A stretch of 64,000 nt of DNA from Candidatus Omnitrophota bacterium (GCA_022711115.1 JAKLFP010000006.1:86214-150213); one strand, 5' to 3'. Counted from the first letter of the stretch, positions 20,997-61,080 are shown. A program made the numbers and translations. Notes: a model not told the origin generated them from the sequence alone.

Positions 20997-22169
20997 GTGG
21001 TTTGTCCGTTGCGCGCCTTGCCCTCTGCGTGTTATTCTTACGACATGTCCAAACCAGCGGCTCTGATCATCGGCTCCAGCGAGAAAGATTCTGACCTTTT
21101 TTATGCAACAAAGTTCATCGCACCGGATCCTTTTATTTTTGTGGAGATCCGGAATAAAAAATATCTCCTCGCTAACGATCTTGAGATCGACCGTGCCAAA
21201 AAACAGGCCGCCGTTCATGCCGTGGTCTCAACCTCTGTTTTAAGCAAAGCCTACCGCGCAAAGTTCAAGAAAGCCGCACCCCTCGAGGAGAAGCTTTTCT
21301 GGTTCCTGAAAAAGCATCGGGTCAAGTCCTTGATCATTCCTGCGGATTTCCCAGTCCGGTATTACGAGCCTTTAAAGCGCGCGGGATTCCGGATTCGCTA
21401 CAAAAATCCTCCTTTTTATGAAAAGCGCAGCATCAAGAACCGCTATGAAATTGCGGCGATCAAACAAGCTCTTCGCGCCACGGAATATGCCGTCGCGAAA
21501 GCGATCCAGGTCCTGAAAAAAAGCGTCATCAAAAAAAACAGGCTTTATTACAAATCAAAGCTTCTCACCAGCGAATTTCTCAAAACGATCATCCATCAAT
21601 CTCTTCTGGAAAAAAGCTGCATCGGAGAACATACGATCGTTTCCTGCGGCCAGCAGACCATCGACCCGCATCACCGCGGCTCCGGCCCCCTTTACGCGCA
21701 CCAACCGATCATCATGGATGTCTTCCCCCGTCATGAGCAAACGCTTTATTACGCGGATTTCACGCGCACGGTTGTCCGCGGCAAAGCTTCGCCTGTGTTG
21801 AAAAGAATGTATGCTGCCGTCAAAGAGGGCCAGAAAATTGCCTTTCAAATGATCCGTGCGAGGATGGACGGGAAAAAAGTTCATGCCGCAATTCAAGAAA
21901 GATTCTCGCAATCCGGTTTCCAGACCGGAAACATGGGAGGTCGCATGCAAGGTTTTTTCCATAGCACAGGACACGGCCTCGGGTTGGATATCCACGAGCC
22001 GCCGCGCATCGGCGCCGCCACTGACCTCTTGAAGGCGGGGCAGGTGGTGACTGTGGAGCCCGGACTTTATTATAAGGGTATCGGCGGTGTACGTCTGGAA
22101 GATGTGGTGCTTGTCACAAAAAAAGGCTGCACCAACCTCACTAAATTTCCTAAATTCTTAGAACTCTAA
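20997..22169 (+). CDS. Xaa-Pro aminopeptidase / M24B peptidase.
   Basis: 390 aa. HSTGHGLGLDIHEPP and the VVTVEPGLYY metal-ligand motifs of the M24 family. Confidence 0.88.
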   Translation: MVCPLRALPSACYSYDMSKPAALIIGSSEKDSDLFYATKFIAPDPFIFVEIRNKKYLLANDLEIDRAKKQAAVHAVVSTSVLSKAYRAKFKKAAPLEEKLFWFLKKHRVKSLIIPADFPVRYYEPLKRAGFRIRYKNPPFYEKRSIKNRYEIAAIKQALRATEYAVAKAIQVLKKSVIKKNRLYYKSKLLTSEFLKTIIHQSLLEKSCIGEHTIVSCGQQTIDPHHRGSGPLYAHQPIIMDVFPRHEQTLYYADFTRTVVRGKASPVLKRMYAAVKEGQKIAFQMIRARMDGKKVHAAIQERFSQSGFQTGNMGGRMQGFFHSTGHGLGLDIHEPPRIGAATDLLKAGQVVTVEPGLYYKGIGGVRLEDVVLVTKKGCTNLTKFPKFLEL

Positions 22170-25992: not shown

Positions 25993-28900
25993 TTACGCGC
26001 TTCTTGCCATCGCGAACTGCGCTTGGACTTCCGTCACAAGCGTATTGATGCGGTCCCCAGCAAGGGTGAGGAAATTCTTGAGCATTTTAGGCATCACCAG
26101 CATCGTATCCGGCCATTGCGCTTTCAGGGCCACGGCCAAAGGTTCGCTCGCATAGGCCAATGGCTTGAGATTTAAAGATAAAATACCGGTACTGCGCAGA
26201 CGCGCGGCTTCTATATCCAGGAGTTTTCTCGCTTCATCCAGATGATCGGCTGGAAGGATCGGCGGCCGATGGGCTTGGGCAAGCTGGATATTGATTTTTT
26301 CAAGGAAGCCGCGGTCTGCGGCATTACGTACTAATACGATAACAGGCGTATCGCCGAAAATCGGACGGATAGCCGCGATCAAGCCATGATCCAGCGCAAG
26401 TTCAGGAGCAAGGATCAAGGCATCGGAGGTGGAAATTGTTTTAATCCCAAGGGCTTTAAGCGCTTGGGTGAAACGAACTTTGTCCAGAACCTGTTGAGCC
26501 TTTTGCACCATAGAATCCGGCAAAAGCGATATGGCAAGTTCCGCCGCGTTAAAGGCATAAGCCTGAAGCGAAACAAGGCCATCAGTCAGCTTTTCCGTTA
26601 CTCCTTCGAAACCTTGCAGGTTCCCGCCACCTATTTTTCTGTTTTCCCTGATCAGGTCTTCGATAGTTTTCACGGCAACACGCTCTGGCGTAAAAGTCGT
26701 CAAAGTAACCGTAGGAAGCGGAACAGACAAAGGAACATTTCCAACAACGGCTGCTGTCATGGTGGGTGTTACCGTATGAATCGCCATGGTTTGCCGCACT
26801 TCCGAACGTGACGCCTTTCCTTTGTCTGCCTGTAATTCAGAATGGATAGGTTTAAGATGTAAAATTTGCGCATGATCCCCATCCCTGACCGGTACGCGAT
26901 GTTTCCAACCCGAAAGCAAGTTATCGCGTTCTCCATAGTTTTCCCAGGTTAACATATCCACTACTTGGTAACGGACGCCCGGGTCGATCATTCTTTCAAG
27001 ACCGTTTGTAAGTGTTGTCGATACTTTCCCGTCACCGGCTAATTCACCCTCCTGAATGCCGAAAATAATCGAGGCAAAAACCATTTGCCCAGAATCACTT
27101 TTCCTTGCGAAAACAAGAGAACTCTGATTGGAAGGATCAAAAACTGTCCATTGATGTCCTTCAGCATCGGAAAGATTGTCTCCAAAAACAGCTTTGATCT
27201 CTGTGACTGCCTTCCGAAGTTTTGAGTAATATCCCGGGTTCCAATGTGCAACTTCGGATTTTTCTAGAAGTTCCGGTCTAAAAAGAGCTATCAGGGTCAT
27301 TAAGGGCTTTATGTTTTCTCCAAAGTAATGGGCCGCATCTTTAGCCGAAAAACTGGCCATGATCGCCAATTGTTCAAAAAAGTGGTCCGACCGTACAACA
27401 CCGTCTGTTAAAGTGTACCCTCTGCCTTTTTGGCGGACGAGTTGTTTCATAAGCGCCATCGCAGAGGTTTCACGGTTTCGGATCTTTTCCGCAATATTGG
27501 CAACTTCCGGCAACTCAATGGCCTCCCATTCTTGGACTTCCACAGCGATGGGCATCGAGATCGACGCAGGAACTTCCGAAGCGACTTCATCGCTATGTTG
27601 AATGGTGTGCTTTTTCTCGTATTTGGGGTCCGAGATTCGAACAAGAGGAACATTGCCCGTTTTTCCGACCAACCCGGCAAAGATAGCCGGATCGATGGCG
27701 ATGGAAGTCCGAGACTTGAAAAGTTTCCCCCCGCTCGAGGGGACTTCTTCTCTCACAGGAGCACCTGTATTAATATTCACCTGAAGCGGTTTTCCTCCTC
27801 GTGGAGTAAAAATGAAAGATTGGATCTCGGTGCGCCGGCTCTTTAGGGGTTTGGCGGCCGGATGACCTTCAAGGTAACGCACAATATAAACAGCCCAAGG
27901 CTGATATTTGGGACTGACGTTTTGCGTCAATTCTTTTCTTAGTTTATGGGCTTCCGCGGGAGAAGCTTGCATGTAACGTTCAAACCAATCACCCGCCATA
28001 CGAAGCAACAGTTCTTCTGTCAGATCCAAAGCTTCCAAATTAAGCCGGATTCTTGTCTTTTCATCTGCCGTTTCCGCTTCCGCGGCTAATTGTCCGATCC
28101 GTTTTTTAAAGGGCTCCAATCCTGAAGAAAATTTGGTGAGGACTTGCTCGCGTAAATATCTGAAGATATCATCGTAATAAACATGATGCCGTAAGCTGTT
28201 TAAGGCTTCAACGCCGCGCGAAGAAGGGCTTCCCGTGGGCTGCCATGTTTTGATTTCTCGAAATGAACGGAACATCCCGAAAAGCCCCAAGCCTTCAGCT
28301 GAATGTTTTCGGAATCTGCTTAAACCCTCCCACACAAAATCAGGCGCCTGCACAGGAACCGCATAATCGGAAAACTGATATTGAAGCTGGCTAAATAACG
28401 CTTCCCGCTCTTCATTTTCCTTGAGCATATTTTCAAACAAATAGGCGTGCCCCATGGCCTGTCCTGTCACCATATCCACACGCCAGGCGGCCGCTACGGA
28501 TTGATACATACGTTCACGGCGGGTCGCAGGATCTTTTCTTAATGCTTTGACTGTTTTCAAGGCTTCAAAGAGACTGCGGGCCGAAGGGCGCCTCCCCCCG
28601 CCTTCCTGGCTACTTTTCTCGCTATCGTCATAGGCTACAAAAACACCGCTCAAAATCTCCCAGTCACCGCTTCTTAAACGTTCCCTCAAAATGTCCTGAG
28701 TGATCACTTTGGTGTTCGGTTCCCCTTTTTCATTCAAGACATCGATCATCGCCCCTGTTTTTCTGTCGCGGATCACCCAAACCTCGGGGTTGCTTCCGGC
28801 AAAAGGTCCGACAACTTCGCCTCCGTTGGCCATGACTTTCATCATGCTCGTGGCGGAAGCTTCCAGATCTTCATCGGACAGCATAACTCCTGCTTGGGCT

Positions 28901-31900
28901 CCTCGAAAAATAATTTGCGCTTCGTAATAGGTGTAATCTTCGAGAGTGGCTATCCGGTCTTCCAATCCGAGAAGTTCCGTCATAAAACGTATATAAAGAA
29001 AACGGTCATGCGCGTCGTCTGCAAAAGTACGCCCGCCGATCAACAGGCGAGACATGGTACGCCGCAAAACTTCAACTGCCGGCTGGTTTTTAAGACGTTC
29101 CCGAAGCCCTTCAAAATCATTTTTATAGCGTCCATGATTTTGATCCCTTCCATCTCTATACGCTTTCCAAAAAAGAAAAAGTTGATCGAAAGGCCTTGCA
29201 AAAGGGCCGGAAAATTCCACTTTAAGCCCGGCTTGAGTCACCGCTTCTTCCACTCTTCGTTTGAGCGTTTCTTCGGCTTCTACGGCTGTCATGATAGGTT
29301 TTTTTATCTTTTGGGCGGCTTCGTCTGCGGCTTTGGCAGCGGTGTCTTTCAATCTTTCTTCATATTTATCCGGACCTTTATAAGGTACCTGGCGTCTGAC
29401 ATTCGATGAAATAGGATCGCCAAGAAGCAGATCGCGGGCTTTCCCATAATTTTGTTCAAGTGTCGCCCAGTTTTCTGGTCGGTTTTCTTGAATCGCTGTC
29501 GAAAAAAGTTCCTGCATTTCTCTTAAATGTCCCGCCAGCTGCGTGTCATCTAAATGGCGTTCCGTTTGATAATCTCTAAACGTGCTCCCAAGCCAGTCGC
29601 TCGCGCCTTTGAAACCGCGTTTTTCGCGGAGCCAGATCAGAAGCTGGGCTGCATCGGCCGCGCTGACCCATTCATTTTGAATCTTGAATTGTTCGCGCAG
29701 ATCCGAATGTTTTTCAAGCTCCTGGAAAAATTGCCGGTCGTTGGCTTCTGAAGGAAGTCCGTTTTCCGGTTTTGGGATCTGAAGTTCTTGCTTAAAACGT
29801 TCGATCAAAAGCCTTCTTGCCGGAGACTGCCAACGCGGCAGAAAAACACCGTTCGTACTTCGAATACCTTTAGAAGGATCATAAAAACCTTTGACGCGAT
29901 GCCATGCGGCGCGAAAAATATTTTTTAGAAGCGCCGGTAAGTGTTCCACAAGATTGACGCCGGAAATGAGATGAAAAACCTCTGCCGTAAACCCGGCAAT
30001 ATCGATCATACCGTCATGAACCAGCGTGGAGCGCAACCATTCGGGGAATCCCAAAAGCTCGTAGTGACCTTCCCAGGCTTCAAAAAGACCCGGACGAAAA
30101 ACCGTATGGTTCAGTGTCACTCGCTTCGCACTCTTGAGATGCCGCACCGGGAGGCTCACGAACACTTCATGGTCCAGAAGAATGATGTTCTGGGGATTGT
30201 TTTGATTTTCAAGGATTTGGATCAGACGTTCGCTCGCGGCGCTGAAGAAAGCCATATCAATTTCGCGATTACCCGTATCGTCGTAAACCTCCAAAAAGGC
30301 CGGCGCTTCTTCTTGTCCATTCGGACCTTTGACATAGGCGTCCAGATAATACTGCGGTGATTTGTGAAATTGAAAATAAGTTTTGTAAACCCGGAAAGAG
30401 ACCGTTCTGGGAACTCCTCTCACGGGAAGTGTGACCTCCAAGGCAATATCGGTAGGATCTAAAAACTTTTTGATGATCTGACCGAGAAGTTTCCGCTGAT
30501 GATGATCATAACCTTTGCCGGGCTTATTTTTGATGAAGTTCCAAAGCGGATGAATCCCGGTTACATTCATCCCGAGCGCAGCCCAGGCTTCAAAAAGGTC
30601 CGGCATCAAAGCTCCAAGGCCGCCTGTCAAAGTTGTTTGGGAAGCTTCCCCTGCAGTCCAAGCGCTCATCTCCGCAGCGATTTTTTCCAGAACAGGCATC
30701 GGAAGACCGCATTCGAATTGCCGGCTATAAATATGCTGTTTATGAACTCGGGGCGTATTAACTTCGACCCACTTTGGCACCTTTTGCTCCCGCAATTCTG
30801 AACGTGGAAAAGACGGGGTTATCCCGAGTGTTTTGAAATCAATATTGATCAGGCGGGGATGGCTTAAAAAATCCAACGCGACATCCCAGGATTTCAGCGC
30901 AAGACCCGCTGCGACAAGATTTAAAACGGTCCTGCGGTACAACTCAAAATCCGGACGGTCGACAAGCTCATAAGCTTCCATGCCCTCATAGAAAGATCCA
31001 TGGCCTGCAGCGGCAAGCTTTTGGATCCCTGCCAGGAAATGGGTCTTGGTGTTTTCTTCGAAAATCTTTTTTCTGACCCAAACGATTGTTTTCCCTCTCA
31101 CACCGTAATACCAGCTTGTCTTCATATCCACTTCGACAAATTCATCTGGCTCCGACGGCCGCTCATAGGTCACAAGCCACTGAAGCATACCGGCTAAATA
31201 GTTCGGAGTAATAACGGAATGGTCTATCAAGCTTCGCACCTCGGATCGCCGGTAACGAATGGTTACTTTGGAATTGTTGATCACGGTGTTTTCCCAACCG
31301 CGGGAAGAAGCAGTGACCGATTGGGTTCCCCAGCTTACGGAAACAAACCGGTATCTATTCATATCTGAAATGCCCGCAGCCCTGATTCCGTCAGCACCTT
31401 CAAAATGATTGTCAATGAATTGCCTCACGGTCAGTCCGCGCGGCACATTGATAAAATTGATTGCGATCAGATTTGAAGCGGGCGCAGAAGGTTTCGGCAT
31501 CTCTTGTTGTTTAGGCGCCGGCGGAAGTATTCCCATAATCTTCGCCGCCATTGCTTCCCCGGCAGCTTTCGCTTTTGTTTCATCCGCCACAGTTAAAGGT
31601 ATTTCTTTTTGAACTGGTTCGACGGGTGTTGTTTTTACCGTTGGCACAGACGGTGTATTCCGGGAAGATAGCGCGGCAGCTTCTTCGGTTTTGGACAAAG
31701 CTTGTATGACAAAATGGAGCTCATTCGTCCACGGGTGATCAGGTCGACGGTCTAAAATAGTAAGCGCTTGGATCCGATGGAGAGGATAATGCTCAGGCTG
31801 GTCTCGAAGCATACGGCGCACCGCTTCAGCAATACGTTCCGGAGCTTCGCCCATGCCCACATGATGCACAAGCTTGCGATTGCTATAGCTTGTATCCGTG

Positions 31901-34900
31901 GACGTTTCAAAACTAATCTCATCAATCCTCATCTTCACCTGGAACATAAGCCGATACACAGCATCCCGGACCTCAGAAGGCGTACGTGCAAACACCTCCA
32001 TAGACTTGGATTCTGCTAATGTTTCCGAAACCTTTTTTGGGCTAATTTTCTCTGAAACAGTCATCACGTCGATCTTCTGCCCGATTTGAAACTCGGGTTT
32101 AGGCGCGACAGTCGGTTGAAGTGTGAGCGTGATCTCGCCTTTGTTGTTCTCGGCAGTCAATAAGAACCATCCGTATATTTCTTGGTGGGATGGCACATTC
32201 GCGAAAAAGTCGTTGCCCGTATCGTTCCAAAATGCTGAGGATTGAATCCGGCGACCTGCGCTTTGATAAATAACTTCAATGGCGTGGTCCCGCGCGATAT
32301 TCCACCGATCACCGATTTGGCGCAATGCGTCGGAAATCCGGTCAAATGTCAGCGGTTCAGAGGTCCACGTGTCTTTAGACGGAGCATAAGAAACGCTTAC
32401 AATGCGGTTCGCGTTATAACCGGTTGAACCGGCTTTCTCTTGGATATAAAGCGTCCCGCCTATCAATGCCTCGAATTTTCCTTCGTAAACAGTTCCATCC
32501 TGCATGGAAAGCTTCAACATCGTCCCCAAAGCGACATTTCCCGCTTGAGCATCCGTTTTAAATTGCGCGAACGGGACTTTGGCAAGCAACGTTTCCGCTA
32601 TGTTTTTGGCCATCCCTTCCGGCTTTGGTTGCTCTTCACCGCGCACTTCCGAGCGTTTGGAATCCACATAGGTTAGTGAGGGAGAGAGACGATCATCGGC
32701 AAAATGCAGCCAAAAAATTTCGCCTTTCTGAATAAGAATATCTCGCCATTCCATCGGACGGCTATAAGCATAACGCTGGCCTTTGCTAGAAACCTCTGCA
32801 CCGACCAGGGCCTTATCACTGAGCGAACGAAGACGGATAAGAGATTCCATCAGATCCGCGAGAGACGATTTCTTTAACGCCTTGACTTTTATGAGTGCTT
32901 CCGAGCCATGGATTATCTGGACAGCCTGCTGCGAAGCGCTAAGCCCGGAACCCGGACTCACTAGGCTTCTCAATTCCGAGCGGGACTCGGCGATGAGGAA
33001 GGAATCGCCGGCTCCGGCAATTTCGAAAGTTTTCAAATCCGGATTCAGAAAAGAGCGCCGGAACGCTTCGCCCAAGGACATCCGTCCCGCACTATCCAAT
33101 TCAATAAAAATGGCCCTGCGATGAATTTGATCCATATAGTCTCTTGCCGCAACCGGATCTTGAGGCGTTGTTTGCTCAACCATTTGCTGCCATGCTGTCG
33201 AAGGATAAACCCGCAAGGCTTTGCCTGCCTTTTCCGATACAGCGATAAGTTGAGTCTCCTCTCCTAACATGGTTCGGAAAGGTGCGGGAAGTTGGATCCT
33301 ATTTTTATCATCCACCTTGAAGGTATAAGAGCTGGTGAAGATCACCGGCGCCCGCACTTCAGAGCGGGAAATCACGGGTAAGAGACCTTTATATTTAAGA
33401 TCAGGTCTTTGTATGCCAAGAGAAAAATTTGAACTGCCATCCGCGTACCGGATCACCCATGGTTTTTCGGTTTTGCTTTGGGCTTCCAGCAGTTCAGAAA
33501 GCGATGGTAACTTCACCGGTTGGCCGTTCTTGAACCATTCCAAAACTCGGTTTTGCTGCGACGTATAGCCCAATTTTTTTGCTAGGGTCTCGCGAAGCGC
33601 TTGGGAATCCATGAACTTCATGGGCCAAGGAGCTTTAAGATCAGGCGGGAACCTTGGATTGGTGCGAATCCCGTATACTTGTTTAATTTCACCATCCTGG
33701 GTGATAAAAATTGCCTGGAGAGGGAAACGGCCGTCAAAGCTGCTTCGTAATTGGTCACCGTCAAAAAACCTGGTTTTAAACCGGCCAAAGTGAACGGAAA
33801 TGTTTTTGGCGCCGGTCCGATAAACGAGTTCATGGTCAGGTCCAAGATAAAATCCTTCGAATTCCGGGCTTCTCGGGTCCTGCGTTCCGTTGAACGCGAC
33901 AACTCCCTGCTCAACCGGCTGCTGATACTTCTGCGCCAAATCGAACAGGATTTGTTCTCCTTCAAAATAAGTGACATACGGATCAAGCGCCTGCGCGAGG
34001 TCCCTGTCCCCGAAAAGATTGCCGACGATTTTGACCGTAACGGGTTGCACTGCCTTTGCCCCTTCCGCTTGAGCAAGGCTGATGATCTCGATGCTGTTCG
34101 GATCCTTCGCAGGTTTAAAATCCACGCCCTCGATCAAATAAAGTTTGTCGCGCCAGGCCTGAAGCTGGCTAATCAATTCATTGATAGTGATCTGCGGTCC
34201 GGTTAATGGTTTCAACGTAATCCTCGATTGCCCGATCTGTATCCACCTTGTCGGGCTCGTCACGGACCGGCTGTAAAGAACTTGGGTTTCCGGTAACGCA
34301 ATGGCCGGTTCGGGTTTCTGTTCAACGGGTTCTGTTTTCTTGACTTCTTCTACAGGGGCTTGCGCTGTCTGAACCGGGGTCTTGGGAGAAGCAAATCCCT
34401 GCCGTTGCTGAGCCGCTTTCTCACGGAGTTCTTGCTCTTTCTGAGCTACTTTTGACACCCTGACATCCCACTGCCCGCTACGGCGGGCGTCGTCTTTATT
34501 CATTCGCACTTCAGAGCGGGAGGTAAGCTCGACAATTTGGACGGTAAGTCTTTTCATTTTCTCTTCAGCGGAAGTATTGAGTAATCGATAGGCCGTAAAC
34601 GGTCCCGCAAGCATTTCCGTCACTTCTTGAAAGCCATATTGCCTGACCTTCGGAATAGCGTAATTGAATTCCACAACCGTGACAGTTTGAGAAGCGCTAT
34701 CGACTTTAGCGATCACTCTTTTCCATGAAATGGAGCCGAGATTGGAATTGTCGATGCGCCAATCCTTAGAGATCAACACGCTATTTTCTAAAGTATCGAA
34801 GTCCCCTGCCGAGGTTTGAGAAGTGATCCTGCCGCTTGCCGTATTATTTTCAAGGAGCTTCAGAAGATCGCCATACGGGATGAATCTAACTTCCCCTTCC

Positions 34901-37900
34901 GCTTGCGAAATAACAAGATAAGATTTGTATGCGTCGTGTTCTTGTTCTGCGACAAAAAAGCTAAGATCGCCTGTGGTTTCATCTTTTTGGAAGTCAAGGA
35001 TCCGTTTCCCGGCAAGGAATGTTTCGATTTCTTTTTGAAGTTCCGCGGCAGAACGCCCATTCGCGGCCTCAAATTCAACCTGCCGTTCACCTTGCTTCAC
35101 GATTAATTTTTGTCCGGATTGTTCAATGATAATTGCCGGCGGCGCTGAGTAAGGCCCACCCCACGGAATGCGTCCTTTTCGGGACAGGCTGCGTACTTCC
35201 GAGCGCAACGCAGGTTTTTCCTGCGGTAATTTTCCCAAAACCGCTCTGGCCGCATCATGAACAAGGCTTTTTCCTTTTTCATCAAGACGATTTCCTGAAA
35301 CAAGCTGCTGGACAACATTGGTCACACGGGCATTTACAAAATCGATGAGATCCTGGACCGTCAAACCTGAAAATTCATAATAGGCCGGTTTGCTTTTGGC
35401 CTGCAAGGCGGCTTCATCCGTTTTTGTGATTTCGATGCCGAATCTTTCTTCGAGAGACTGCATCAGACTCATTTCATCCAGGGAATCCATGCCGAGATCT
35501 TCTACTAACCGATCCGTCAGACGAATTTCTTCCTCGATCGCGGGAGGTAAAACCTCTTTTAAAATATCGATGACCTCTTGATCAATATTTTCACTCACCG
35601 TTCCCCGCATTTCCGAGCGACTGGCCTTTCTTCTTTCATTGATGGCGTGCTGAAAGGCATTCGAAAGTATTTTGTAGGGATTTTGCGAATAAAAATAATT
35701 TTGCCACAACCAATGCGCCAGACCTGAAATCCCGATAAAAATCATGCTAAACGCAACCACGCGGGGGATCTGTTCCTCCGCCGGCAAGAAGAATGTTGCC
35801 GTCCCGATAAGAGGAAATATAATCCCCACCAGGACCTTCATAAAAGCACTGCTCCGTCGGAATTGGAGTTCAGCAAGAAAAGAGGTGGGGTTACCGTTTT
35901 CCGCTTTTTTGTAATTGTCGGCATATCGGTTTTTCATTTTTTCCCACAATTGTTCTAAGCGGTCTAAGGTTATCCGGTTTTTACTATTTGATCGGAGATA
36001 TGCTCTGACCGATTCATCAAGAGAGCGCAATTCAGACCTTGCTTCCGTAAAGAGAACAGGATTGATTAAGTCATGGCTTAAATTAAGGGCATCATATTTC
36101 AAAGCTTTTTTTTGCTGTAAAAGTTGAATGCTTTTTGAAGGAATAGTTCGAAACTCAATACGATCAAACTCTGGGACTGTTTCTGTCCTGACGTTTTTGG
36201 TCGGTTTGATGCCCATGGAAGATATCCAGCCTTCAAAGGTTGTTTCCCCTGCTTCTTCCTGAAAGAAGTAAAAACGAAGTTTGAACGGCCCTTGAACAAT
36301 GTCCTCGGGTCCCAATTCGCGGGACCGGATGGTCCCGGCAGCCCCCGCTAACCATGAAAACCACACAAGATGGGAAAATTGTGTCCTTGGCAAATGTTCG
36401 TGGTGGGAATTATAAAGTTTATCGGGAAGTGCGAGATAGTGCTGTACCGCCTTACGGTTCTTAAACAACGTGATCATAAGACCTAAGGATCCTTGCTCAT
36501 CACCTTCAAAGTCATGGGCATCCAACCGAAGCTCCCGCTCCCATCCGATGCCTCCATTTCTCATATTCCAAACAAGCGGTTGGTGGACCAGATCCGACAG
36601 TTTGAATAAAGGTCCCTGAACAGCCCGTACTTCGGAACGAGTTTCCAGCTTCCTTGGCATAAAGAAATTTCCCGCATCGTCCTTCGAATCCCCCATAGAA
36701 AGCTGCTCGATGCCTTTAAAAACTTCGGCAAAAAACTTTTTTGCTTCGGCCTGTCTTATAGATTTTGAAGCGATAGAAAATTCCACTGTGATATCACGGC
36801 CATAGCTATTCAGCATCGCCTGCGTGTGATAGTTCAAGCCTAAAAGGGTCATCTCGTCCCACGACAAAAGATTAAATCTCTGTCCGTCGCTGCGAATAAT
36901 GGCTGCTTGAAAACTCTTGTCTTGAACAAGATATTTTCTTTCGAGAAGATGTTTGGTTCTGGCGGTAGGCGCCGTGTGAAGCCCGAGAGCGTTTCCGATG
37001 CTGTATTTCTTTGCCGCGATCCAGCGATCTCCTATTTTTGTCAGCTTAAAATCAGTTTTTCTTAATTCGGAGCGCTGATCGTTCATGTAATTCGGCTTGC
37101 GGGTCACCGGAAAAGCAGGCTCGGCGGTTTTTCGGGCATATGCAAGCAGGTATTTCTGCATTTTTTCGTATTTTGTACCGACGTTGATCGGGCCTTCGAT
37201 CCCACGGATGGGCTCCGTCAGTGTGAATCCCGCGGCCCGAAGAAGTGTTTCGAAATAACTCGGCGTGACAGTAAAGACCCAGCCATTGAGAAGTCGATCG
37301 CCGCTTAATTTTTGATTTTTAGGCTTGAAGATATTTCCCCCCGGGGCCCATCGGACAAAAAGAGGCGCGTCTTTTTCGAGAAGGTCCCTGAGCGAAAGTA
37401 ATGCGTTTAGCTGTTCTTCGGGCGAAAAATAAAGGAGCACATCGCTGATAAAAATCCCTCCGAAAGTTTTCCCGTTGAAATCAGCCGTTCGGAAATCGGC
37501 GGTCATGAACCTGTCTTTAGACATGTCCCCGAAAGAGGGATCTTCGAGAGCGGCTTTGATAAGCGACGGCGAGATGTCCGTTCCCCAAAGGTCGGTAAAT
37601 CCCTGTTCCTTAAATTTCTTGAGCGCCCTTCCGATGCCCATACCCACATCAAGAATGCTTTTATCCTTGCCGGCCATCAACGCCAGGAACTGATCGATCG
37701 TTTCTTGATGCGGAGAAACGTTCCAATCGCGGAGCTTATGGCGTTCAAAATCAAGGGAGAATTCATCATCCGTCCAGTACCGGACATTGCTGATCGCCGG
37801 GTCGGGGGGTGATTTTCTGAAGGTTTCTACCGCCGCCTGGAATTCCGGAGAAGTTTCCATCAGCGTTGCCAAAACCCGGGCAAATTCCGGATGATGTCTT

Positions 37901-49900: not shown

Positions 49901-52900
49901 ACTTGCTGTTTGATCTTTTCCTTAATCTCAAACGCTATTCGTTTTTTCGCCCCGGGATCTTTTTCTGCCTTGTATTTGAGCCACATGTCCCGCGTATCCA
50001 CAAACGCGATGTCCACGTTCACGCCGCCGAACCACTTCAGCAAAATCCTTTTCCCTTCCGATACCGCGCGCATCACGGCCGGCCACTGCAGTCCGATCCC
50101 AAGCACCGCGGAAGCGTCCGAAAAAATCACGATCTTTCTTTTTTGAGCCGGGAAAGACAAAGGCTTTTTGCCGTAAAGCGGCGTTTCAAGGTCCAGGCCT
50201 TTTTTCAGCGCGTCCGCGATCGCTTCACAAACGGCTCCCACGCCGGGGGTATAAACCGTCTTCATCGCTTCGATCACATCGACCGGGACAATGCCGTGCT
50301 TAAAAAATATGTCGATGAGTTTTTTGTAAGTCTGATATTCCGATGGGATCGCCGCCGGCAAGCTGTCCTCAGATGTCTCCCGAACTTCAGACCGGGGTCT
50401 GCTTTCCATACTAACCGCTACTTTGCAATTATTTGTGTCGGCCCGGGTCCTTACGCGGACATTTTCCCATCCCAATCGGGTAAGGTTTTTGAATGGAATA
50501 TCAAAGACAACCCAAGTTGTCCGATTTGAATCTACAATAAGCGAAGCTTCTTCTATCAATGCGTGGATATCTCCGTAGATATCAGCAGGCCTTTTCCCGG
50601 AAGGATCCACGTATAACCGCATAGGGATCCGGATCCGATCGTCCGGCTCAATGAGTTCGACTTGAAGTTGTTTGTGATCCTTAAAGAAGGATTGCTTAAC
50701 AAAAATATTGACGGCTTTGTCGTTTGTTTCGACGAAACCCGGAACCAAAAGGCTGATATCCTGTGCGGGTAAATGCCATTGGGGGCCTATGAAATCTCCC
50801 AGCGGCTCCCGAAAACTCCATGCCGTCAGCGCAAGAATTAACAACGCCATAGCCATACTTAGGTTTAAGAAAATAGCCCGTGAACTTAGGTTTGGATTCC
50901 ACCAGCGCCTTATCTGGGTGTCTGTGCGTGAAGCTTCTGGGATGGCAGCAACAGAACCGCCTTTCGGGGGCATGGTTCGTATTTCGGAACGGCGTCCAAA
51001 AGCTTTGGTAAGCGCTTCGGCAAGGGCTTTCGGATTGTCCCATGGAGCAAGATGTAATGAGGAATCTTTTTTGGGGTTTTTAAAAACAATTTTTTTCTGG
51101 AAAGGTTCAAGGCTTCGTTTTTCTCCTGACTGTATGACAGACACTTGTTTTGAGTTCAATCCAAGCGCCCGCTGTAATGTTAAAACAAGGTCTTCCGGAC
51201 TTTGCACAAAATCCAACGGGGCCATGTCAATGCCCACCCAAATACCGTTTCCAGCCTGATGAAAAGTTACCTCATACCCAAGTACTTTTGCCGTCTCACC
51301 CCGCATTTCGGAACGGCCCAGGTTTTGGCTTGGATCTGTTCTACCATTTGCGCGCTGATGAACGTTGATGATCGTTTGGGCGATCTCCATGGAGTTCATA
51401 ACAAAACCGTCTTTCATCACCGGTTTTACATTTTCGGTAACAAACTCCGAGGGACCCTGAGCGTAAACAAGCAACTGGCCGTCTTCGCTCTCAATAACAT
51501 GAATCCCATTCGGCAATGTCCTTCCCATACCTTGGATCAATCCTGCGAGCTGTTTTGCCGAGAAAACCGTGGTGTAATCACCGATGACCGCCGCAAGAGA
51601 TGTCGGATCTTTCCGGCTAGCGGCCCTCACTTCAGCCCGTTGAATGGCAGCAATTGCATTTTTTGCACTTAGGTGAACGGATGGATCTGAATCATTCAGC
51701 GCTGAGTAGAGCGCTGAAAGCGCTGGTTGGGCCTGGGGACCAATTTCCCCAAGTGTGATAATGGTCTGCTCACGAATCTCCGGAGAAGGGTCCCTCAATT
51801 GGGGCATTAACTGCCAAACTGCATCGCCCGCCTCAGAACCCAAGGCGCCAATAGCGGCAATGGCCTTTAAACGCACCTCTTTTTCCGGGTCGCCGATTAA
51901 ATGAAGCCAATCACTCACATTTTTCGGCATAGCCGTTTCAGACGTACTCCTCATTTCAGAGCGATTGTCCGCGGGATGTTTTCCTTCGAAGTGTGATGGT
52001 TTTTTGACAAAGGTGACTTTAGCGGTTGTCCCTTTAGGATAAGGATGTTTCAGGGTTTCGGGATTTTTTAAATCAACTGCTTTATGGCCGGGAGATGGAA
52101 TGATGCTGGCAATGTATTCACCGCCGCCTAGATTTTCACGTACCTCAACGGCTCGCTTGATAGCCTTGAGCGTCATGGTTGCCTCAAGTTTATAGATTTT
52201 AAAATGAAGGGCGTCGTCAGCTTTCACTTCCGTTAGCCCTTTGACCTTCGTCCTCATCTCGGACCTGGCAGAACGGCTTTTCAGGGTATCTATTTTTCTT
52301 TGACCCTCTTGATCTTCCGGTTGGATATAGCGGTGCAGAAAATGCCAAAGAAGAGATTCAGGAGTGAGAAGCGACTGGTCCCAAACCGGCATGTCTTTAA
52401 AAATCGTCTTGAATCGTTTCAGGACGTTGAATACAAAATCATTCTGCTTTCTCTGGAATTGCTGGGCATAGGCGATTTCGATTAACGGCCCCAAAAAACG
52501 GTTAAGAAACGGCAGTTCATAAGCAAGTTGTGTATTAATGGAACGATGCGCTTTTTTCATGGTTTTAAAGCTACGTTCCGTTTCTTCGAATCTCATCTTT
52601 TGCCATCTCCGGATCACCTCGGCAACCGTATGCTCCGGTCCCACCACCAAACTTGCGAGGATATCCCGCATCAAGCGGATGTCATAACCTGTCAGGATAT
52701 TATTGCCGTAAAGCAGCATATCAGGACTTGTATAAAGAAAGATCCCATAATGTGTTTCTTCAGGTTTCAAAACGGCCAACAACTCATCACTCAAAGCTTC
52801 AACCCCTGTCACAATCAAGGTCTCGTCCGGCGCAAGCTGCAAAAGCTGTTTTTCTCCTCGGTCGTCTTTAACGCGGATTTTCTTCCCGTCCAAAGCATTA

Positions 52901-55900
52901 CGGACATCCCACGGATTGGCAAATTCAAGGTCCAAATGTTTCAGCTTAAGACCTGCTTGAGCGAGCATTTCAGAGAGCTCTTCGGTGATTCCATGTTTGC
53001 CCGAAGCGCGCATGCCACCGATCAAGATCACCTTGGGTTTTTTCTCAAGGATCTCACGGATAACCTCCTCGGTCTGTTGCTTTTTGGATCGATCCACCTT
53101 TTCGACCAATGCTTTTCTTTCCTCTTCGGTTTTGATCGCTCGAAGTTCGTCGAGAGTTTCGGGCAGAAGTTCCAGGCTCATGCCTTCAAGGTCATAAGGT
53201 TTTTGGCCCTCAAGTTTTTTCGCCCATGCTTCGGGATGGCGCGCCAATTCCGCATTCATAATACGGATGACGGCCAAAATAAAGGCTGCTTTTCGAAGAC
53301 TTATTTTTTTCGCGTCGGCAATACGAACAACATTGTTAAAAGCGCTGATAATTTTATCTTCCATAATGCGGTTCACGGCATCTTCCGGCCATTGTTCACG
53401 AACAAGGTTCTGCCGCCATTCCAGGTAAGAAACGATCACGCCGCCCGCATTGGCAACCACATCCGGAACAACGATGACACCTTTTTGCTTCAAAATTCCG
53501 TCGGTTTCCTTGTTTTTGATCGGTCCGTTGGCTGCTTCAATCACCAATTTGACCCGGAGCAAACGGGCAATGCGTTCATCAATGGTATTTTCGAGTGCGG
53601 CAGGCACTAGGGTATGAACCTCGCTGGCCCAAAATTCTTCCTCGGAGATCACTTTCACTTCTTCGGGGTATTCTTTTGCATAATCCAAAATGGTTTTCCT
53701 GGGAAGCATGTTGCCGGCCGCGTCTTTCCTGGGTGCCAGGAATTCCAGAATCTTGGGAATGTTCAAACGTTCACCGGTTTTGGTCGCAATAGCGCCTTCT
53801 TTTTCTTTCACGGCCATAATCCTTGCTCCATTTTCATGAAAGATTTGCGCGCCATGCCCGCCCACATTGCCGAGTCCTTCAAACGCAACGGTTTGTTTTT
53901 CTATCTCTGTCCCGATGCCGAGCCGGGCTCCAAAAACTTTGACTGCTTCGCGCCAGACAAAAAACACCCCACGGCCTGTTGCTGCAGTCCGACCATGTGA
54001 ACCGCCTTTTTTCTCGGGCTTGGCGGTCACCACAGCAATGGGAGATCCTTCTACCATTGGAATTTTATGCTTTTCAGGATTTGCTAAATACGCGTCTAAA
54101 TAGGGTGTGTCGACATCTTTGGAATTGCTTAGTTTCCACCGAAATTCGATTGTTTTTTTGAATAATTTGTCATGCTTAATCTTTAAAAATTCATCTGCCA
54201 TCCATGCCATTTCCTTTTCTCCAGTGCCGACATCCGGAGCCGGAATATCATTCAAAGGACCGATCGCATCGGCATCTTTGGCAAGCAAAGCCTTCACATA
54301 ACCTCGAGTCAATCGTGCGAGCTCGCCTTCTGAAAGCTCGCGCGGATTCACGGCAATGCCTCCCTTGCCCCCTCCGTAAGGAAGCCCTGTGATGGCATTT
54401 TTGATGCTCATCCACATGGAAAGAGCCTGCACATCCTCAAGATCGACATTCGATTTATAGCGCACACCGCCTTTTCCCGCCCCCCGCGCATCATTGTGAT
54501 AGACGCGATAGCCTTTAAAGATCTTTGTGGTGCCATTATCCATACGCACCGGAATATTTACTTCAAGGATACGATAAAAGCTGAGGAGCCATTCAAGAAG
54601 TTGGGGATCAAGGTGGATCAGCTCTGCGACCTCCGAAACCTGACGCTTTGCATTATCAAGGGCCACCTGACCTTCGGATGCTTTTGCCTGTGCTTCTTTT
54701 TCTGCTCGCACTTCGGACCGTCCTTCAAGTTGGCCGGGCATGTCGGCCATCAAAATTCCCTCGTCATCTGACAGCAACGTCTGCTGACCGCCAGGCGCTA
54801 CATAGCGCGACACCGGCCTGCTGAGTTTTTTTCCTCCGCTGAAATTCAGGAAAGCGATCGGTTTCCGGTTGAATTTTTCAGAAAGTTTGGAAGCCCAAAA
54901 ATCAGCGCTAAACTGATCCGTTCCGGCCACTACCAAAATCTGGTCTGCTTCTGATAATTCGTTAAATAACCTGTCGGGAGGTGAAGTGATGTCGATGGCC
55001 CATTCACTCTCATTGCAGATGAGCAGTGCCAGTTTGAATTTTTGATTCAATAAAATGATTCGCGATTCTTGGTTATGAGCGTATTTCTTGAATTCTGTTT
55101 TTTGAACTCGACCCGTTCCATCGGAAAGGAAAAAGACATAGAAAGCCCTTAAGTACTCCAGCCCTTCGGGAGGGATCCTCTCCAAACCGTAGCCGACCGA
55201 AATTCCAAGACGCCGGACCGTTTCTGAGAGAATTCTTTCTCTTTCTTTTTCGCGTTCCGGAGTGTAGCTGTTCCAACCCACAACTTCATCCGGGCTTTCA
55301 GGGAAAACAACAAGATCGGGGGCATTTGTTCCGAATTTATCTTTGAGCCCTTGCAGAATCCCCGCCATTCTGGCTGTGCTCGCATCAAAATCATTTTCCT
55401 TCATTTGGACCCAAGCGATCCTTGGAGCGTCACTTTTTGCCTTTTCGTCAAGCCACACAATCTGTGCGGGTAACGCTTCTTCTTTTTTTCTCACTTCGGA
55501 ACGAGAAGAAACTTCGGGCGGCTGTTCTTCAAAAAGAAGATCAAGGGCCAACTGACCTTCTTGACCATAACCTTTCTGCCGAAACAGATCTTCTAAGCGA
55601 GGGCGTTGTACGAGGTCGCTGAAATCCGCATCTTCGGAAATTTGGTCTTGTATGGTCTTGCGAAGCAATTCCAGAATCCTTCCCGCGGATGAATAATCAG
55701 AACCACGTTGAGTCTTACGAATAAGAGAATCTGTTAACGCCGTAAAAATATTAGCGAGAAAAATAGTGTCTCGAGCTTCCTGAGAGATATTGGCAGGAAC
55801 ACGGCTGGCTGGTTTTTGATCCTGCATTTTTGCCCTCGCAATAGCACTTTGAATCCAGTCCATGACCGTTTTCTTGGTTTTGTTTTCAGTCCTCACTTCA

Positions 55901-58900
55901 GAACGAACTGTGGCAGAAACCGTCATCTTTTCAAGAAGCTTTTGAGGTACAGGACGGCCCTCCTCAAAAAAATTGGCTGTCGCCCAATCATAAATGGCAC
56001 CCCCTACGGATTTTTGGGCTTGGAAAAAGTTTTCTTCTTTATTGCCGGGAAATTTTGATAACGTTTCGCCGGCTACCTTTAAAAACTCACTTTCAAGAAA
56101 TGTTTGCATCTCCTTTTTTCGCTTGGATAAATCCTGAAAAAATTTTCTTTCTTCTGCACTTGCGGTTTCTTCTATGTTTTTGGGGCGTTCAAGGAGTCTT
56201 TCGATAAAAAGCTTGGCGTAGAATTGCGCCATTTCGAGGTTAATCTTGTCCCATTTTAAATTTTTAAGCTCTTCGAGGGCTTTCTGCGCTTGCTGCCCCG
56301 CCGTCGTCAAAGCATCTTTTTTGGATAGGGCCAATTTTTGCCAATATTCGGAAGGCATACTCGCGATCATTTCGGGCGTTAGGTCATCCGCGCGAGTTGC
56401 GTTTTTGATTTTTTCCCAAGCAGCTTCGTTTTGTGCTAGGAATGCAGCTTCAGCTTCTCTTTTTTCAGCTTCAACGGCTTCCAGCTCTTCGATCTCCTTG
56501 TTTGTCACATCGAGTAAGAGGCGGCTCTTTTTCTCTAGAGCTTTTTGTTTTAACTCAGGAGTCGGCAACGCTTCGATGATTTCTTTTGTGATTTCTCCTG
56601 GCTCTGTTGCGTTCTGAACTACGGTGAGAGCATTCTTTACAGCCTGTCGCTTATTTTGCTCAACAACGCGCATGTAGTCTGTTTGAACCTGACCCATTTG
56701 CTTTGCTGTCCTGGTTTCTCCTTCTTGCATCAGTTTGGCTGTCGCTAATGCCTTTTTTTTAGCCCTTGCTAATTCCTGCCAATATCCGGATGGCATCCTT
56801 GCGATCATGGCTGGGGTGATGCTTTTGCTGCTTGTGGCTGTCCGGATGGTTTCCCAAACTTTTTTATTTTTTTCTGCTTGGACATCACCGGATCTCCGGA
56901 CTTCAGCTTCTTCAGATTCCATCTTCGAAATTTCCGCAGCTGTTATCTCCGAGAAAAGACGGCTTTTTGTCGCGATGGCTTCCTGTTTCAACGCCTGCGT
57001 CGGCAGTGCGTCGATAATTTCTTGCGTGATTTCTCCGGGCTCCATGGCACGCCGCACTACTTCTAAGGCATTTTGGATGATTTGCCGATCGTGCGCCTGA
57101 AGTTCGCGAGTCTGTTGCTCAAGCAAGGCTGTCTGACGAGCTTCACCGGCCGCTATGACTTTCCCCCATGACAATTGAGAAGCTTTTATTGCCGCTTTTT
57201 GGGCCTTTTGAACAGCAGCTTCTTTTGCAGCTTTTTCATCGGCCTTTTTCTTCGGTAAGGCAGCTCCCTGGGCAAGTTTCGACTTTTGAGCTGCTTCTTT
57301 GGATTTCTGAGTTTCTTGTTTCTCCCTTTCTTTTTGTTCCTTGGCCAACAAAGTAGCTATCTTCAAGGCTTCTGCCTTTTGAGCCGCCTCCTTGGCTTTT
57401 TGAGCCGCTTTTTCTTCCTCTTCTCTTTGTTTTTTTTCTAAAGCAGCTATTTTCGCAGCTTCTGATTTTTGAGCTGCTCTTTCTTCTTTTTCTTTTTCCT
57501 TTTTTTCAAGAGCGGCTAATTGGGCTTCGGACAAGCTTGGCTTTGCCGGTCGCGAAGTAATAATCTTTGGCTCTCTCCTTTGAGCCCGTTCAACCAAATA
57601 AGTTTTAAGAACCTCGCTTTCGGGATACATCTGCTGCAACTGGGTCATGGCACCATGGATCTGCTCCATGGTTCCCGTTTTTTGGATCTGGCGCACGCGG
57701 GCTTCTACTGCATTCCGAACGGTTTGAATATACATGTCCCTGTCACGCCGCTGCCTTTGTTTGATCTGTTGCAGATCCAAAAGTTTTTCGGCTGTCTTTT
57801 TTAAATCAGGATGTTTCGCGACCCACTGAGCCAATGCTTCTTGGAAGCGCCGGCCAATAAACACATTTCTTTTGCCAAAAAAAACATCCGCATTCCCTTT
57901 CCCATAGATTTGATTGATCTTCCGTCCGATACTTGTTGTTTCGATGACGCGCAGTTCGTTGGCGAGTATTTCAAGAGGAACGGGCATATTTTTGAATTGC
58001 GGGTTTCCATAATCGCGGATTCTTTTCAAAGCGCTATCCACTAATTCTGTGAAATCTTTATTTTCACTCGGAAGATGCAGTCCCCAAACTCCCATCTCCC
58101 TGAAATCCACTTCAAAACGGTGGATCGTGGAAGCTACAATCCCCGTTGTTTTTTCAAGGGCTTCCTTCAAACGAAGAAGCGTCAGCTTTTGATCTTTCGC
58201 GAGTTCTTTTTCGAGGTCTTCGACAGTCTTTATCACGGTATCGAACGTCAGCGTGACATGGCCGAGATTGACCTTTGTTTCCTTTGCTTTCTTTGCTCTT
58301 ACCTCGGAGCGAGAATGCGAAAGAAAAAGTTCCTGGATAGCCGACTTCTGATAATTCATGTCGGCGGGCCAGTCCTTTCCAAGAACGCCGTGGGCCCATT
58401 CGTGAAGATCCGCAAGAATATCCAAGAAAAATGCTTCTTTGGGATGGAGATCCGCAAGCTCGTGCGCGTAACCGATAATAGAAAACCGTTTGAGTGAATC
58501 AAGAAAAGTCAGTGCGCCATGAAAATTTGTATCCGCCGTACCGGCCTCAAGCGCCAAAAAAAGATCTTCCGATTCCTGGATCAATCGCTCAAGAAGTGGC
58601 CGCCAAATTTGATGCGCGGGAGTAGAGCTCGAGAGATTCCATTGTTGCAGGACCTTTACAAGTCGATTGTTGGTCCGGTCTAAAAGGCTCTTCAGCTCCT
58701 TGATGGATTTTTCATCCGCAGGCGAAAAAGAAATATTCCTGGAAAAAACAACCCCATAGAAATTTTTATCCGGTATCGGAGAAATCCCAGGGACATGCTG
58801 CCTGGTGAACATATCCAATGCCTCAAGCCATAAACCTGAAAGCTGATAATAAACTGCTCCAAAATGCGCCAAAAGCACGTCACCCTCTTTGGCATTCCCT

Positions 58901-61080: not shown

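Follow-up and report, generated by a model that had tools for sequence, protein, structure and literature searches.

A window of 64,000 nucleotides (nt) from an uncultured Candidatus Omnitrophota bacterium (GCA_022711115.1, JAKLFP010000006.1:86214-150213; "the window" always means this whole stretch) carries on its minus strand an open reading frame (ORF) of 11,695 codons, which runs for 35 kb with zero in-frame stops. This giant ORF begins with a putative hydrolase domain, here called the head, continues through about 36 cargo modules and ends in a conserved tail, and the pentapeptide RSEhR, where h is Val, Met, Leu, Ile or Ala, recurs between the modules (Table 1). We consider the giant ORF to encode a cellular polyprotein in which RSEhR marks the processing sites, probably cut by an enzyme of the head family, and would put the probability of this reading at roughly 70%. 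The whole chain would be translated as one polypeptide and at the sequence …[S/A/P]-R-S-E-h-R / x an endopeptidase would cut between the second Arg and x, any residue other than Pro, freeing modules with near-native N-termini, some of which would be exported by means of their own Sec signal peptides while others would form their usual oligomers. The candidate protease is the head, acting in cis or in trans, and/or a free-standing head paralogue encoded at 61396..63573. The occurrence of cleavage, the exact scissile bond, the cutting enzyme and the cellular site are all things that we infer from sequence.

Giant ORFs are sometimes artefacts, and as the window is metagenomic sequence a mis-assembly, a chimeric contig or a mis-read genetic code has to be considered. 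However, the identical gene of 11,695 amino acids (aa) is called, together with its neighbours, in assemblies from ENA, JGI (two samples) and NCBI (metagenome-assembled genome GCA_035390585.1), making at least four independent assemblies or sources, and because independent assemblies carry the same gene the giant ORF is a natural gene and not an artefact. Furthermore, it is adjoined by ordinary chromosomal genes (menaquinone biosynthesis, a sulfotransferase, a flavodoxin-like protein, an M24 peptidase and transketolase) that end at ordinary stop codons, the unrelated enzyme families that Pfam recognises within it all lie in one frame, and hundreds of homologous ORFs have the same architecture; an artefact can be given practically no weight. 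Cutting the ORF in silico at the motif yields 37 modules (M01 to M37) that range from 81 to 1,332 aa; their median of 226 aa resembles that of ordinary proteins. The Pfam families among them include glutamate dehydrogenase (GDH), HEAT repeats, malic enzyme, UDP-glucose pyrophosphorylase plus epimerase, inositol monophosphatase (IMPase), a methyltransferase, an acyl-carrier-type domain, MraZ and a starch-synthase/phosphorylase-like protein. A second polyprotein ORF lies at the left end of the window (1..6942), and the two take up 66% of it.

The original prediction, which was made from the window alone, counted 33 canonical copies of RSE[VMLIA]R, and a recount in the frame of the giant ORF gave exactly that number with the same composition (V 17, M 7, L 5, I 2, A 2) and the same end coordinates, from the first copy at 59188..59202 to the last at 26794..26808. 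The composition of the ORF leads one to expect 0.074 copies and 2000 shuffles gave a mean of 0.068 and a maximum of 2, close to the earlier estimate of about 0.06; the Poisson probability of at least 33 copies is 5e-75. Four degenerate copies previously listed (HSELR, HREVR, RFEVR and PSEVR) are all present, but the list had missed RAEVR at 51625..51639 and two copies of RNELR inside the paralogous modules M18 and M23. RAEVR is probably a real junction, because a homologous module in the related locus L035 starts nearby and RAExR is a junction type elsewhere. In the rest of the window there are, over all six frames together, four canonical copies that are off-frame or antisense, and three further canonical copies lie in the frame of the left-hand polyprotein ORF (at 5008, 3769 and 1426). 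Absence of the motif from ordinary genes had been set beforehand as a check, and in the window the 6,466 aa of ordinary ORFs contain 0 copies, whilst across 30 related loci its density is 1.84 per 1000 aa inside polyproteins against 0.017 per 1000 aa in neighbouring ORFs.

Selection on the motif acts at the level of the peptide and not of the nucleic acid, as had been proposed, because the copies vary synonymously, the flanking nucleotides are not conserved, no RNA structure is formed and Rfam gives no match. Outside the 15 nt the information content is about 0.1 bit per base, in line with the earlier claim of no conservation beyond them, and at third codon positions of the motif it is 0.3-0.4 bit; about 8 of the 15 bases are fixed and these track codon positions 1 and 2. 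Arg codons of either family occur in the motif, as do Ser codons of either family in the left-hand ORF and in other genomes. The consensus RNA structure of the 33 sites, taken with 25 nt on each side, has 0 pairs, an Rfam search of the window returned nothing, and no inverted repeat, ribosome-binding site or start codon is conserved at the junctions. It would be possible to see the repeats as a 15-nt nucleic-acid element, be it an integron-attC-like recombination site, an RNA processing site or a simple repeat, given that the modules behave as mobile cassettes bounded by the unit and that its first two codons show a mild bias. Such an element is scarcely credible, however, where the fixed bases are codon-phased, where multiple Arg and Ser codon families serve, where neither conservation nor inverted repeat nor predicted pairs nor an Rfam match accompany the unit, and where the copies keep to one frame and one strand apart from the four mentioned above. 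An assignment to clustered regularly interspaced short palindromic repeats (CRISPR), to repetitive extragenic palindromic (REP) sequences or to an attC-like element was tried and failed for want of nucleotide-level conservation or secondary structure.

It had also been claimed that all five codons vary synonymously, which is true as far as variation is present, but the variation is uneven: in the giant ORF the Ser codon is TCN in 33/33 copies and the first Arg codon (Arg1) is CGY in 27/33. Over 244 sites in other genomes, from loci L013-L092, CGY makes up 77% against a background of 42% and TCN 89% against 67%. Overall, Arg1 is CGY at 77-82% of sites (background 40-42%) and AGR at 5% (background 25%), and Ser is TCN at 89-100% (background 67-69%); the bias is limited to these first two motif codons, with the last Arg and the Glu following background usage.

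At the protein level the flanks carry about 0.5 bit per residue against about 4 bits in the motif, so the view that flanking residues are unconserved holds in terms of information, but it does not hold for their composition. In 806 R[SA]ExR sites positions -4 to -1 and +3 to +6 are 1.3-1.8-fold enriched in Pro, which drops to only 0.11-fold at +1, a position from which Tyr (0.05), Trp (0.2) and Arg (0.24) are likewise excluded; position -1 favours Ser, Ala, Pro and Gly, and both flanks are poor in hydrophobic residues. The pattern fits an exposed linker that would be cut between the second Arg and the next residue. A segment resembling a signal peptide starts no more than 15 residues downstream at 4.7% of motif sites, compared with 1.4% of random positions (odds ratio 3.45, p = 1e-9). 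This enrichment, the exclusion of Pro at +1 only and the concerted variation of the motif between lineages, described below, favour a protease site cut after the second Arg, and we regard it as likely that RSEhR is a site of proteolytic processing.

A pentapeptide read on the nascent chain, as the original prediction also allowed, or its codons, might separate the modules during translation in the manner of 2A/StopGo and without any protease, and the unexplained bias at the first two motif codons would suit such a mechanism. Known StopGo sequences comprise about 18 residues ending in NPG/P, whereas only five residues are conserved here and Pro is excluded at +1. Moreover, the ribosome is highly conserved and yet the motif gives way to unrelated sequences such as LSDSR and AASLG in related lineages, and the junctions show no conserved mRNA structure, ribosome-binding site or start codon, all of which makes translational separation very improbable.

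The cargo modules are whole proteins, each of a type that ordinarily has a separate gene. The clearest case is M06 (818 aa), a GDH with an extension of about 320 aa, which aligns end to end with the free-standing 796-aa gene P0161: residue 3 of the one pairs with residue 3 of the other, their C-terminal ends agree within about 6 residues, and P0161 is surrounded by ordinary genes. Solved GDH chains begin about 9 residues into M06, and residue 10 of M17 is aligned with chain residue 11 of a solved homologue of the IMPase family; a PDB search with the MraZ module found no match. Because of the collinearity of M06 with P0161 and the starts of the GDH and IMPase chains so near to module starts, the module boundaries can be equated with gene boundaries. 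The same agreement bears out two further points of the original prediction, that the motif stands at module boundaries, to which motif-bounded modules elsewhere also attest, and that a cut after the second Arg would give the expected module N-termini. In three modules Met occupies +1 after the motif.

Modules also recur as cassettes. Homologues of MraZ (M31), M36, M20, M24 and both halves of M12 sit in other polyproteins, at different positions and among unrelated neighbours, with the motif at the same offset on both ends. Thus the MraZ modules of P0038, L020 and P0031 are motif-bounded at identical offsets, the M36 orthologues in P0039, L022 and L020 are motif-bounded next to other neighbours, the L035 homologue of M20 lies between RSEKR and RSEVR at the same offsets, and homologues of the N-terminal half of M12 begin at offset 0 from the motif in P0112, L032 and P0030. 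In M12 itself (45568..48651) the UDP-glucose pyrophosphorylase-like and epimerase parts are joined without a motif, and in L031 (aa 640-680) the epimerase part is a separate module preceded by RAELR, so that a junction between the same two proteins can evidently be lost or gained. The loci L013, L022, L024 and L033 have the same upstream paralogue, tail and downstream MqnA-like gene as the window, with polyproteins of only 3,218-3,750 aa; set beside the 11,695 aa found here, this means that cargo content at one locus varies more than three-fold among related species.

Modules M18, M19, M21 and M23 are paralogous, and in all four a signal peptide follows immediately after the motif. These secreted paralogues lie within 37897..42828; their signal peptides end in ...QSALAQ or ...GGWAQ, and M18 and M23 are 57% identical. 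It is in this pair that the internal near-motif RNELR occurs (42103..42117 in M18, 38020..38034 in M23), in each 40 aa before the module end and followed by a Pro-rich tail.

The view implicit in the published literature is that such giants stay uncleaved, since Nielsen and Lui (bioRxiv 10.64898/2026.06.07.730766) treat them as single membrane-anchored polypeptides; the giant ORF would then be a membrane-associated multi-enzyme protein, and RSEhR an inter-domain linker or a docking or modification site. That cleavage is itself inferred here, and that in about half of the head-bearing giants no motif is readily seen, speaks for this view, yet on balance it seems improbable. A strict motif of five residues with unconstrained flanks is unlike a passive linker, and Pro, a common linker residue that is enriched on either flank, is avoided at just one position. 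In an uncleaved chain the signal peptides of M18, M19, M21 and M23 would be non-functional or would force alternating topologies. GDH, malic enzyme and MraZ belong to oligomeric families, and these modules and the carrier protein are hard to square with permanent tethering. Finally, the sequence of the motif switches between lineages whilst its position is kept.

This switching was seen in a family of considerable size. A profile of the head matches 9,995 cluster representatives, 7,074 of them at E <= 1e-30, and among the 150 best matches listed the head is nearly always N-terminal (residues 1 to about 600), in proteins mostly of 1,000-6,300 aa. A scan of loci with an alignment of eight head sequences as query and one genome per species gave 156 relatives; among the best 80 of these all the named genomes are Candidatus Omnitrophota, often with several relatives per genome. 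Most of the relatives' ORFs run off the 10-kb flank and are therefore longer than 3,900 aa, and they contain 0-12 in-frame copies of RSEhR with almost none in other frames. Long ORFs without RSEhR bear another recurring pentapeptide whose first copy stands just past the head, namely RPE[SA]R in L015, RAE[LRKV]R in L032, [LF]SDSR in L037, RSESR in L018 and L061, and A[ASQG]SLG in L039, L040, L074 and L076. A junction ending in Gly, as in the last four, implies a very different specificity or a different enzyme; these four keep the head-first architecture. In a de novo search for the top pentapeptide in 96 long representatives RSE.R came first in 38, RAE.R in 7, KSE.R in 2 and RPE.R and RSD.R in 1 each.

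Among the heads paralogue groups can be told apart, with 26-31% identity between groups. The genome CAZDVO01 has one polyprotein for each head group and in both Ser is preferred at position 4 of the motif (8/14 and 9/9), and in JAZDJU01 the orthologues of both have Val or Met at that position; the preference changes in concert in paralogous polyproteins with heads only about 28% identical. The motif type follows the genome and not the head paralogue, a concordance that is to be expected if each genome had one shared reader; as all polyproteins of one genome share one type of site, cutting in trans is likely. Relatives of only about 1,000-1,060 aa, made up of the head and a tail region and in some cases with a single junction between them, are common, which suggests descent from a self-processed protein of two parts that later took up cargo cassettes. 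P0010 and P0012, which are free-standing heads of about 590 aa, end in ...ASESR plus 8-9 residues and so resemble a vestigial junction with a short C-terminal peptide.

The head was originally labelled TraB-like, and this label can be kept at the level of the fold, not at that of the family. Searches of Pfam, NCBIfam and PDB sequences with the head gave nothing at threshold, and the clan families PF01963, PF04187 and PF05139 do not match the head of the window at E <= 10. PF04187 ('Tiki superfamily, ChaN') is nonetheless the most-matched Pfam family, being found below threshold in 6 of 40 family members (best E 0.0046). Comparison of folds gave HopBA1 (9.8), a TraB-family protein (9.3), ChaN (8.5), EreC (8.5) and the MARTX Ras endopeptidase RRSP (7.9), and the matches of a Foldseek search against the PDB were not significant, with EreC, BcR135 and ChaN among the weak top ones. 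The head and the Tiki/TraB/EreA/ChaN superfamily share an alpha/beta fold, and the conserved His, Glu, Arg and Gly-x-x-His residues of the head come in the order that we take to be the signature of that superfamily. Invariant in 40 head sequences are H84, E112-G113, G185-E187, Y192, F468, R475 and G500-G501-F502-H503, of which H84, E112, R475 and G500-H503 fall at the C-terminal ends of predicted strands. The core is interrupted by a helical insertion some 300 residues long. The assignment of the head to this fold is a moderate one. The fold class includes two known endopeptidases, and it is as a tentative proposal that we put forward the head-family enzyme as a protease.

The second candidate named at the outset, 61396..63573, did prove to be a head paralogue of 725 aa that stands as a gene of its own (hhalign probability 100%, E = 4e-40). 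It retains IQDVH, LEGA, GMED, FY..KRD and TGGFH, and in at least 22 loci it is syntenic, being divergently transcribed upstream of group-A polyproteins. It has a C-terminal region of about 270 aa, and the only near-motif in it is LSELR (62833..62847).

Several points weigh against our reading. Whereas 91% of heads, and the free-standing paralogue too, bear an N-terminal signal peptide or N-in anchor (in 118 of the 130 heads with a called start a hydrophobic core begins at about residue 10, the net charge being +3 ahead of it and -1 behind it), so that the candidate protease is predicted to lie outside the cytoplasm, the cargo is mostly of cytoplasmic type (GDH, malic enzyme, MraZ, acyl carrier protein and nucleotide-sugar enzymes), and the internal signal peptides make sense only if cutting is cytoplasmic. 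Enzymes acting outside the cytoplasm would require export of the polyprotein, which is at odds with both; for cutting in the cytoplasm, the head would have to act ahead of its own export, or else a different enzyme would have to do the work. Several members of the superfamily (EreA-C, ChaN) are not proteases. About 45 of the 96 long head-bearing representatives lack an obvious pentapeptide (P0056, P0065, P0073, P0077, P0079 and about 40 others have none that is over-represented), and the bias towards CGY at Arg1 and TCN at Ser is not explained by peptide selection alone.

Another endopeptidase, for example a cytoplasmic Arg-specific enzyme encoded elsewhere, might therefore cut the junctions, leaving the head as a membrane-targeting device or an extracytoplasmic hydrolase. 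It would account for the tracking of motif type with genome and not with head group, as for one shared trans-acting enzyme, and for the mismatch between an exported head and paralogue and a cytoplasmic-type cargo in which some modules need a free N-terminal signal peptide; the moderate fold assignment and the non-proteolytic members of the superfamily are also in keeping with it. We think such an enzyme unlikely, although it carries appreciable weight, as the head is the sole element common to some 10,000 representatives and is nearly always N-terminal in them, its putative catalytic residues are invariant, its paralogue is kept in synteny, and Pfam detects no other protease domain in or beside the polyprotein, bar the M24 aminopeptidase-type gene at 20997..22169.

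If the giant ORF is processed as we propose, its closest parallels are the viral polyproteins with their proteases (picornavirus 3C, potyvirus NIa, flavivirus NS2B-NS3, nidovirus Mpro), in which one ORF likewise yields many unrelated mature proteins in stoichiometric amounts, the junction sites are short and conserved with free flanks and co-vary with lineage, and the protease is part of the same polyprotein, a place for which the head is here a candidate only. Unlike these it is a chromosomal bacterial gene with housekeeping and secreted cellular cargo, its chain begins with a Sec-type signal peptide, its candidate protease is Tiki/TraB/EreA/ChaN-like and not chymotrypsin- or papain-like, and a genome has several such polyproteins that exchange cassettes. 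The MARTX toxins of Vibrio (RtxA) also release modular cargo by cutting between modules, in their case by means of an internal caspase-like cysteine protease domain (CPD), which inositol hexakisphosphate activates and which cleaves after Leu (PMC2780291). They differ in having glycine-rich repeats, type I secretion and 3-5 toxin effectors in place of dozens of metabolic enzymes, and identity with them was rejected, there being no RTX or Peptidase_C80 Pfam match anywhere in the giant ORF. Within the Tiki/TraB/PrgY/EreA/ChaN superfamily (the Wnt-cleaving metalloprotease TIKI1/2, the Ras/Rap1 endopeptidase RRSP, the erythromycin esterases, ChaN) the head is set apart by its insertion of about 300 residues; no member is known as the head of a polyprotein, nor is any known to have Arg-directed specificity. 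Processed cellular precursors include gingipain/adhesin precursors (Porphyromonas), nematode polyprotein allergens and polyubiquitin, which resemble the giant ORF in their regularly spaced and often Arg-directed processing sites, but these are repeats of one or a few related units and not of dozens of unrelated enzymes. PL7 alginate lyases too have R(S/T)E(L/V)R as a signature region, next to QIH and YFKAG motifs; this was dismissed as a coincidence of pentapeptides, since the giant ORF has no alginate-lyase Pfam match and its flanks are mutually unrelated.

The giant ORF is very probably the same kind of gene as the Omnitrophota giants placed in a 'multi-enzyme metabolic cluster' class in a June 2026 preprint (Nielsen and Lui, bioRxiv 10.64898/2026.06.07.730766), and the polyprotein family very probably forms part of the giant ORFs of earlier surveys (West-Roberts et al. 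2023, Seymour et al. 2023). Those proteins are likewise ORFs of many kiloresidues tiled by distinct Pfam families (starch synthase, methyltransferase, HEAT), and most have a signal peptide or transmembrane (TM) helices. None of the three accounts contains a junction motif, a conserved head or a cassette structure; the preprint nowhere mentions cleavage or motifs, West-Roberts et al. (2023) state that the cleavage points of the giants are unknown, and a general survey of huge proteins names the prediction of the proteases and motifs involved as the obstacle. Giant ORFs are characteristic of the Omnitrophota, with published examples reaching 85,000-147,000 aa whose function has been called 'poorly understood'. 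A literature search for an Omnitrophota polyprotein, cleavage site, Tiki/TraB protein or junction motif found no prior description.

Protease-processed polyproteins as such are already known; what would be new is that this one belongs to a cellular genome, that its kind extends over a whole phylum and that its site and its candidate protease family are both new. In its widest form the proposal is of an Omnitrophota system of cellular polyprotein expression, in which the head and tail act as an insertion platform for complete genes, housekeeping and secreted alike, that were captured in frame, cassettes are exchanged and a sizeable share of the proteome is cut by a new branch of Tiki-like endopeptidases out of giant precursors, which in published genomes reach more than 100,000 aa; each captured cassette would carry its genome's own cleavage signal and exchange would take place among the several polyproteins of a genome. 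For this extension we see the chances as evenly balanced. If true, it would also provide a cleavage map for the largest proteins known in biology. Should cleavage as such be confirmed, no cellular organism would have been known before to use polyproteins on a large scale, and the Tiki/TraB superfamily would gain a new protease specificity. Annotation and structure prediction of the giants could proceed module by module after in silico cutting, existing metaproteomes could be searched for the predicted neo-N-termini, and with a junction signal, its lineage variants and a candidate protease to hand the question of the giant proteins becomes directly testable. The RSEhR site and its orthogonal variants might in addition serve for stoichiometric multi-protein expression.

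Table 1. Positions in the window of the two polyprotein ORFs, the head and its motifs, the head paralogue, the tail and the junctions
Feature	Position	Strand	Basis or remark
Giant polyprotein ORF, 11,695 aa: head, ~36 cargo modules, tail	25993..61080	-	stop-free frame; Pfam
Head M01 (aa 1-626), putative Tiki/TraB/EreA/ChaN-fold hydrolase, candidate processing protease	59203..61080	-	
Head signal peptide or signal anchor MGYFKKLKRLLSSIVVITFSITNTISPSSVSYAQ	60979..61080	-	read from sequence
Head motif HIQDAH (aa 79-84; H84 invariant)	60829..60846	-	alignments
Head motif LLEG (E112, G113 invariant)	60742..60753	-	alignments
Head motif GIEN (G185, E187 invariant)	60517..60528	-	alignments
Head motif FYQGAIER (F468, R475 invariant)	59656..59679	-	alignments
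Head motif TGGFH (G500, G501, F502, H503 invariant)	59572..59586	-	alignments
Junction 1 RSEVR, head/M02	59188..59202	-	relatives: first junction also after head, ~aa 590-720
Junction RSEVR, M02/M03	58297..58311	-	
Junction RSEVR, M03/M04	55891..55905	-	
Junction RSEVR, M04/M05	55489..55503	-	
Junction RSEVR, M05/M06 (GDH module)	54706..54720	-	M06 residue 3 = P0161 residue 3
Junction RSEMR, M06/M07	52252..52266	-	M06 end ~6 aa from P0161 C-terminus
Junction RSEMR, M07/M08 (HEAT repeats)	51949..51963	-	Pfam
Probable extra junction RAEVR within M08	51625..51639	-	homologous L035 module starts <=5 aa away
Junction RSEMR, M08/M09	51301..51315	-	
Junction RSEIR, M09/M10	50977..50991	-	
Junction RSEVR, M10/M11 (malic enzyme)	50380..50394	-	Pfam
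Junction RSEVR, M11/M12 (UDP-glucose pyrophosphorylase plus epimerase)	48652..48666	-	Pfam
Junction RSEAR, M12/M13	45568..45582	-	
Possible degenerate junction HSELR, M13/M14	45325..45339	-	
Junction RSELR, M14/M15 (M15: Met then TM helix at start)	44647..44661	-	
Junction RSEMR, M15/M16	44215..44229	-	
Junction RSEMR, M16/M17 (IMPase family)	43768..43782	-	Pfam
Near-copy HREVR, 7 aa upstream of RFEVR	42865..42879	-	
Degenerate junction RFEVR, M17/M18, then signal peptide directly	42829..42843	-	
Junction RSEVR, M18/M19, then signal peptide GKLAITALIGLMLSSVGGWAQ	41983..41997	-	
Junction RSEAR, M19/M20	40468..40482	-	
Junction RSEMR, M20/M21, then signal peptide	40180..40194	-	
Junction RSEVR, M21/M22	39391..39405	-	
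Junction RSEVR, M22/M23, then Met and signal peptide	38746..38760	-	
Junction RSEIR, M23/M24 (methyltransferase)	37897..37911	-	L022 homologue: RSETR on both sides
Junction RSELR, M24/M25	37060..37074	-	
Junction RSEVR, M25/M26	36625..36639	-	
Junction RSELR, M26/M27	36025..36039	-	
Junction RSEMR, M27/M28 (acyl-carrier-protein-like)	35605..35619	-	Pfam
Junction RSEVR, M28/M29	35191..35205	-	
Junction RSEVR, M29/M30 (M30 start MNKDD)	34504..34518	-	
Junction RSEVR, M30/M31 (MraZ)	33352..33366	-	Pfam
Junction RSELR, M31/M32	32968..32982	-	
Junction RSEVR, M32/M33	32641..32655	-	
Possible degenerate junction PSEVR, M33/M34	31966..31980	-	
Junction RSEVR, M34/M35	31234..31248	-	
Junction RSELR, M35/M36 (1,332-aa starch-synthase/phosphorylase-like module)	30790..30804	-	Pfam
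Last junction RSEVR, M36/tail	26794..26808	-	
Tail M37, 266 aa, ends ...ARSA, conserved C-terminal module of this polyprotein group	25996..26793	-	
Free-standing head paralogue, 725 aa, own signal peptide, divergent from giant ORF	61396..63573	+	hhalign
Second polyprotein ORF, start ATG 6942, off left window end, >=2,314 aa	1..6942	-	
Head of second polyprotein, paralogue group B	5023..6942	-	31% identical to M01, E = 2e-65
Second-polyprotein junction RSEIR, head/next module	5008..5022	-	
Second-polyprotein junction RSEVR	3769..3783	-	
Second-polyprotein junction RSELR, Ser = AGT	1426..1440	-	

The tail, M37, is C-terminal in all 20 of its homologues (1,164-11,695 aa), and its fold is that of a generic alpha/beta domain for which no specific match was found. 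Amongst stop-terminated head-bearing ORFs 28 of 32 end in Ala (p = 3e-25; the C-terminus in the window, 25996..26007, and L013-L092), mostly in the pattern x-[S/A]-A (ARSA, AVSA, AKSA, AIRA, TQAA) after an amphipathic helix, and this ending is kept even among tails without detectable homology; a role as degron, C-terminal recognition tag or secretion signal is conceivable. Divergently upstream of the second polyprotein lies a plus-strand gene (7443..8021) that is 74% identical to the gene beside the head in L091.

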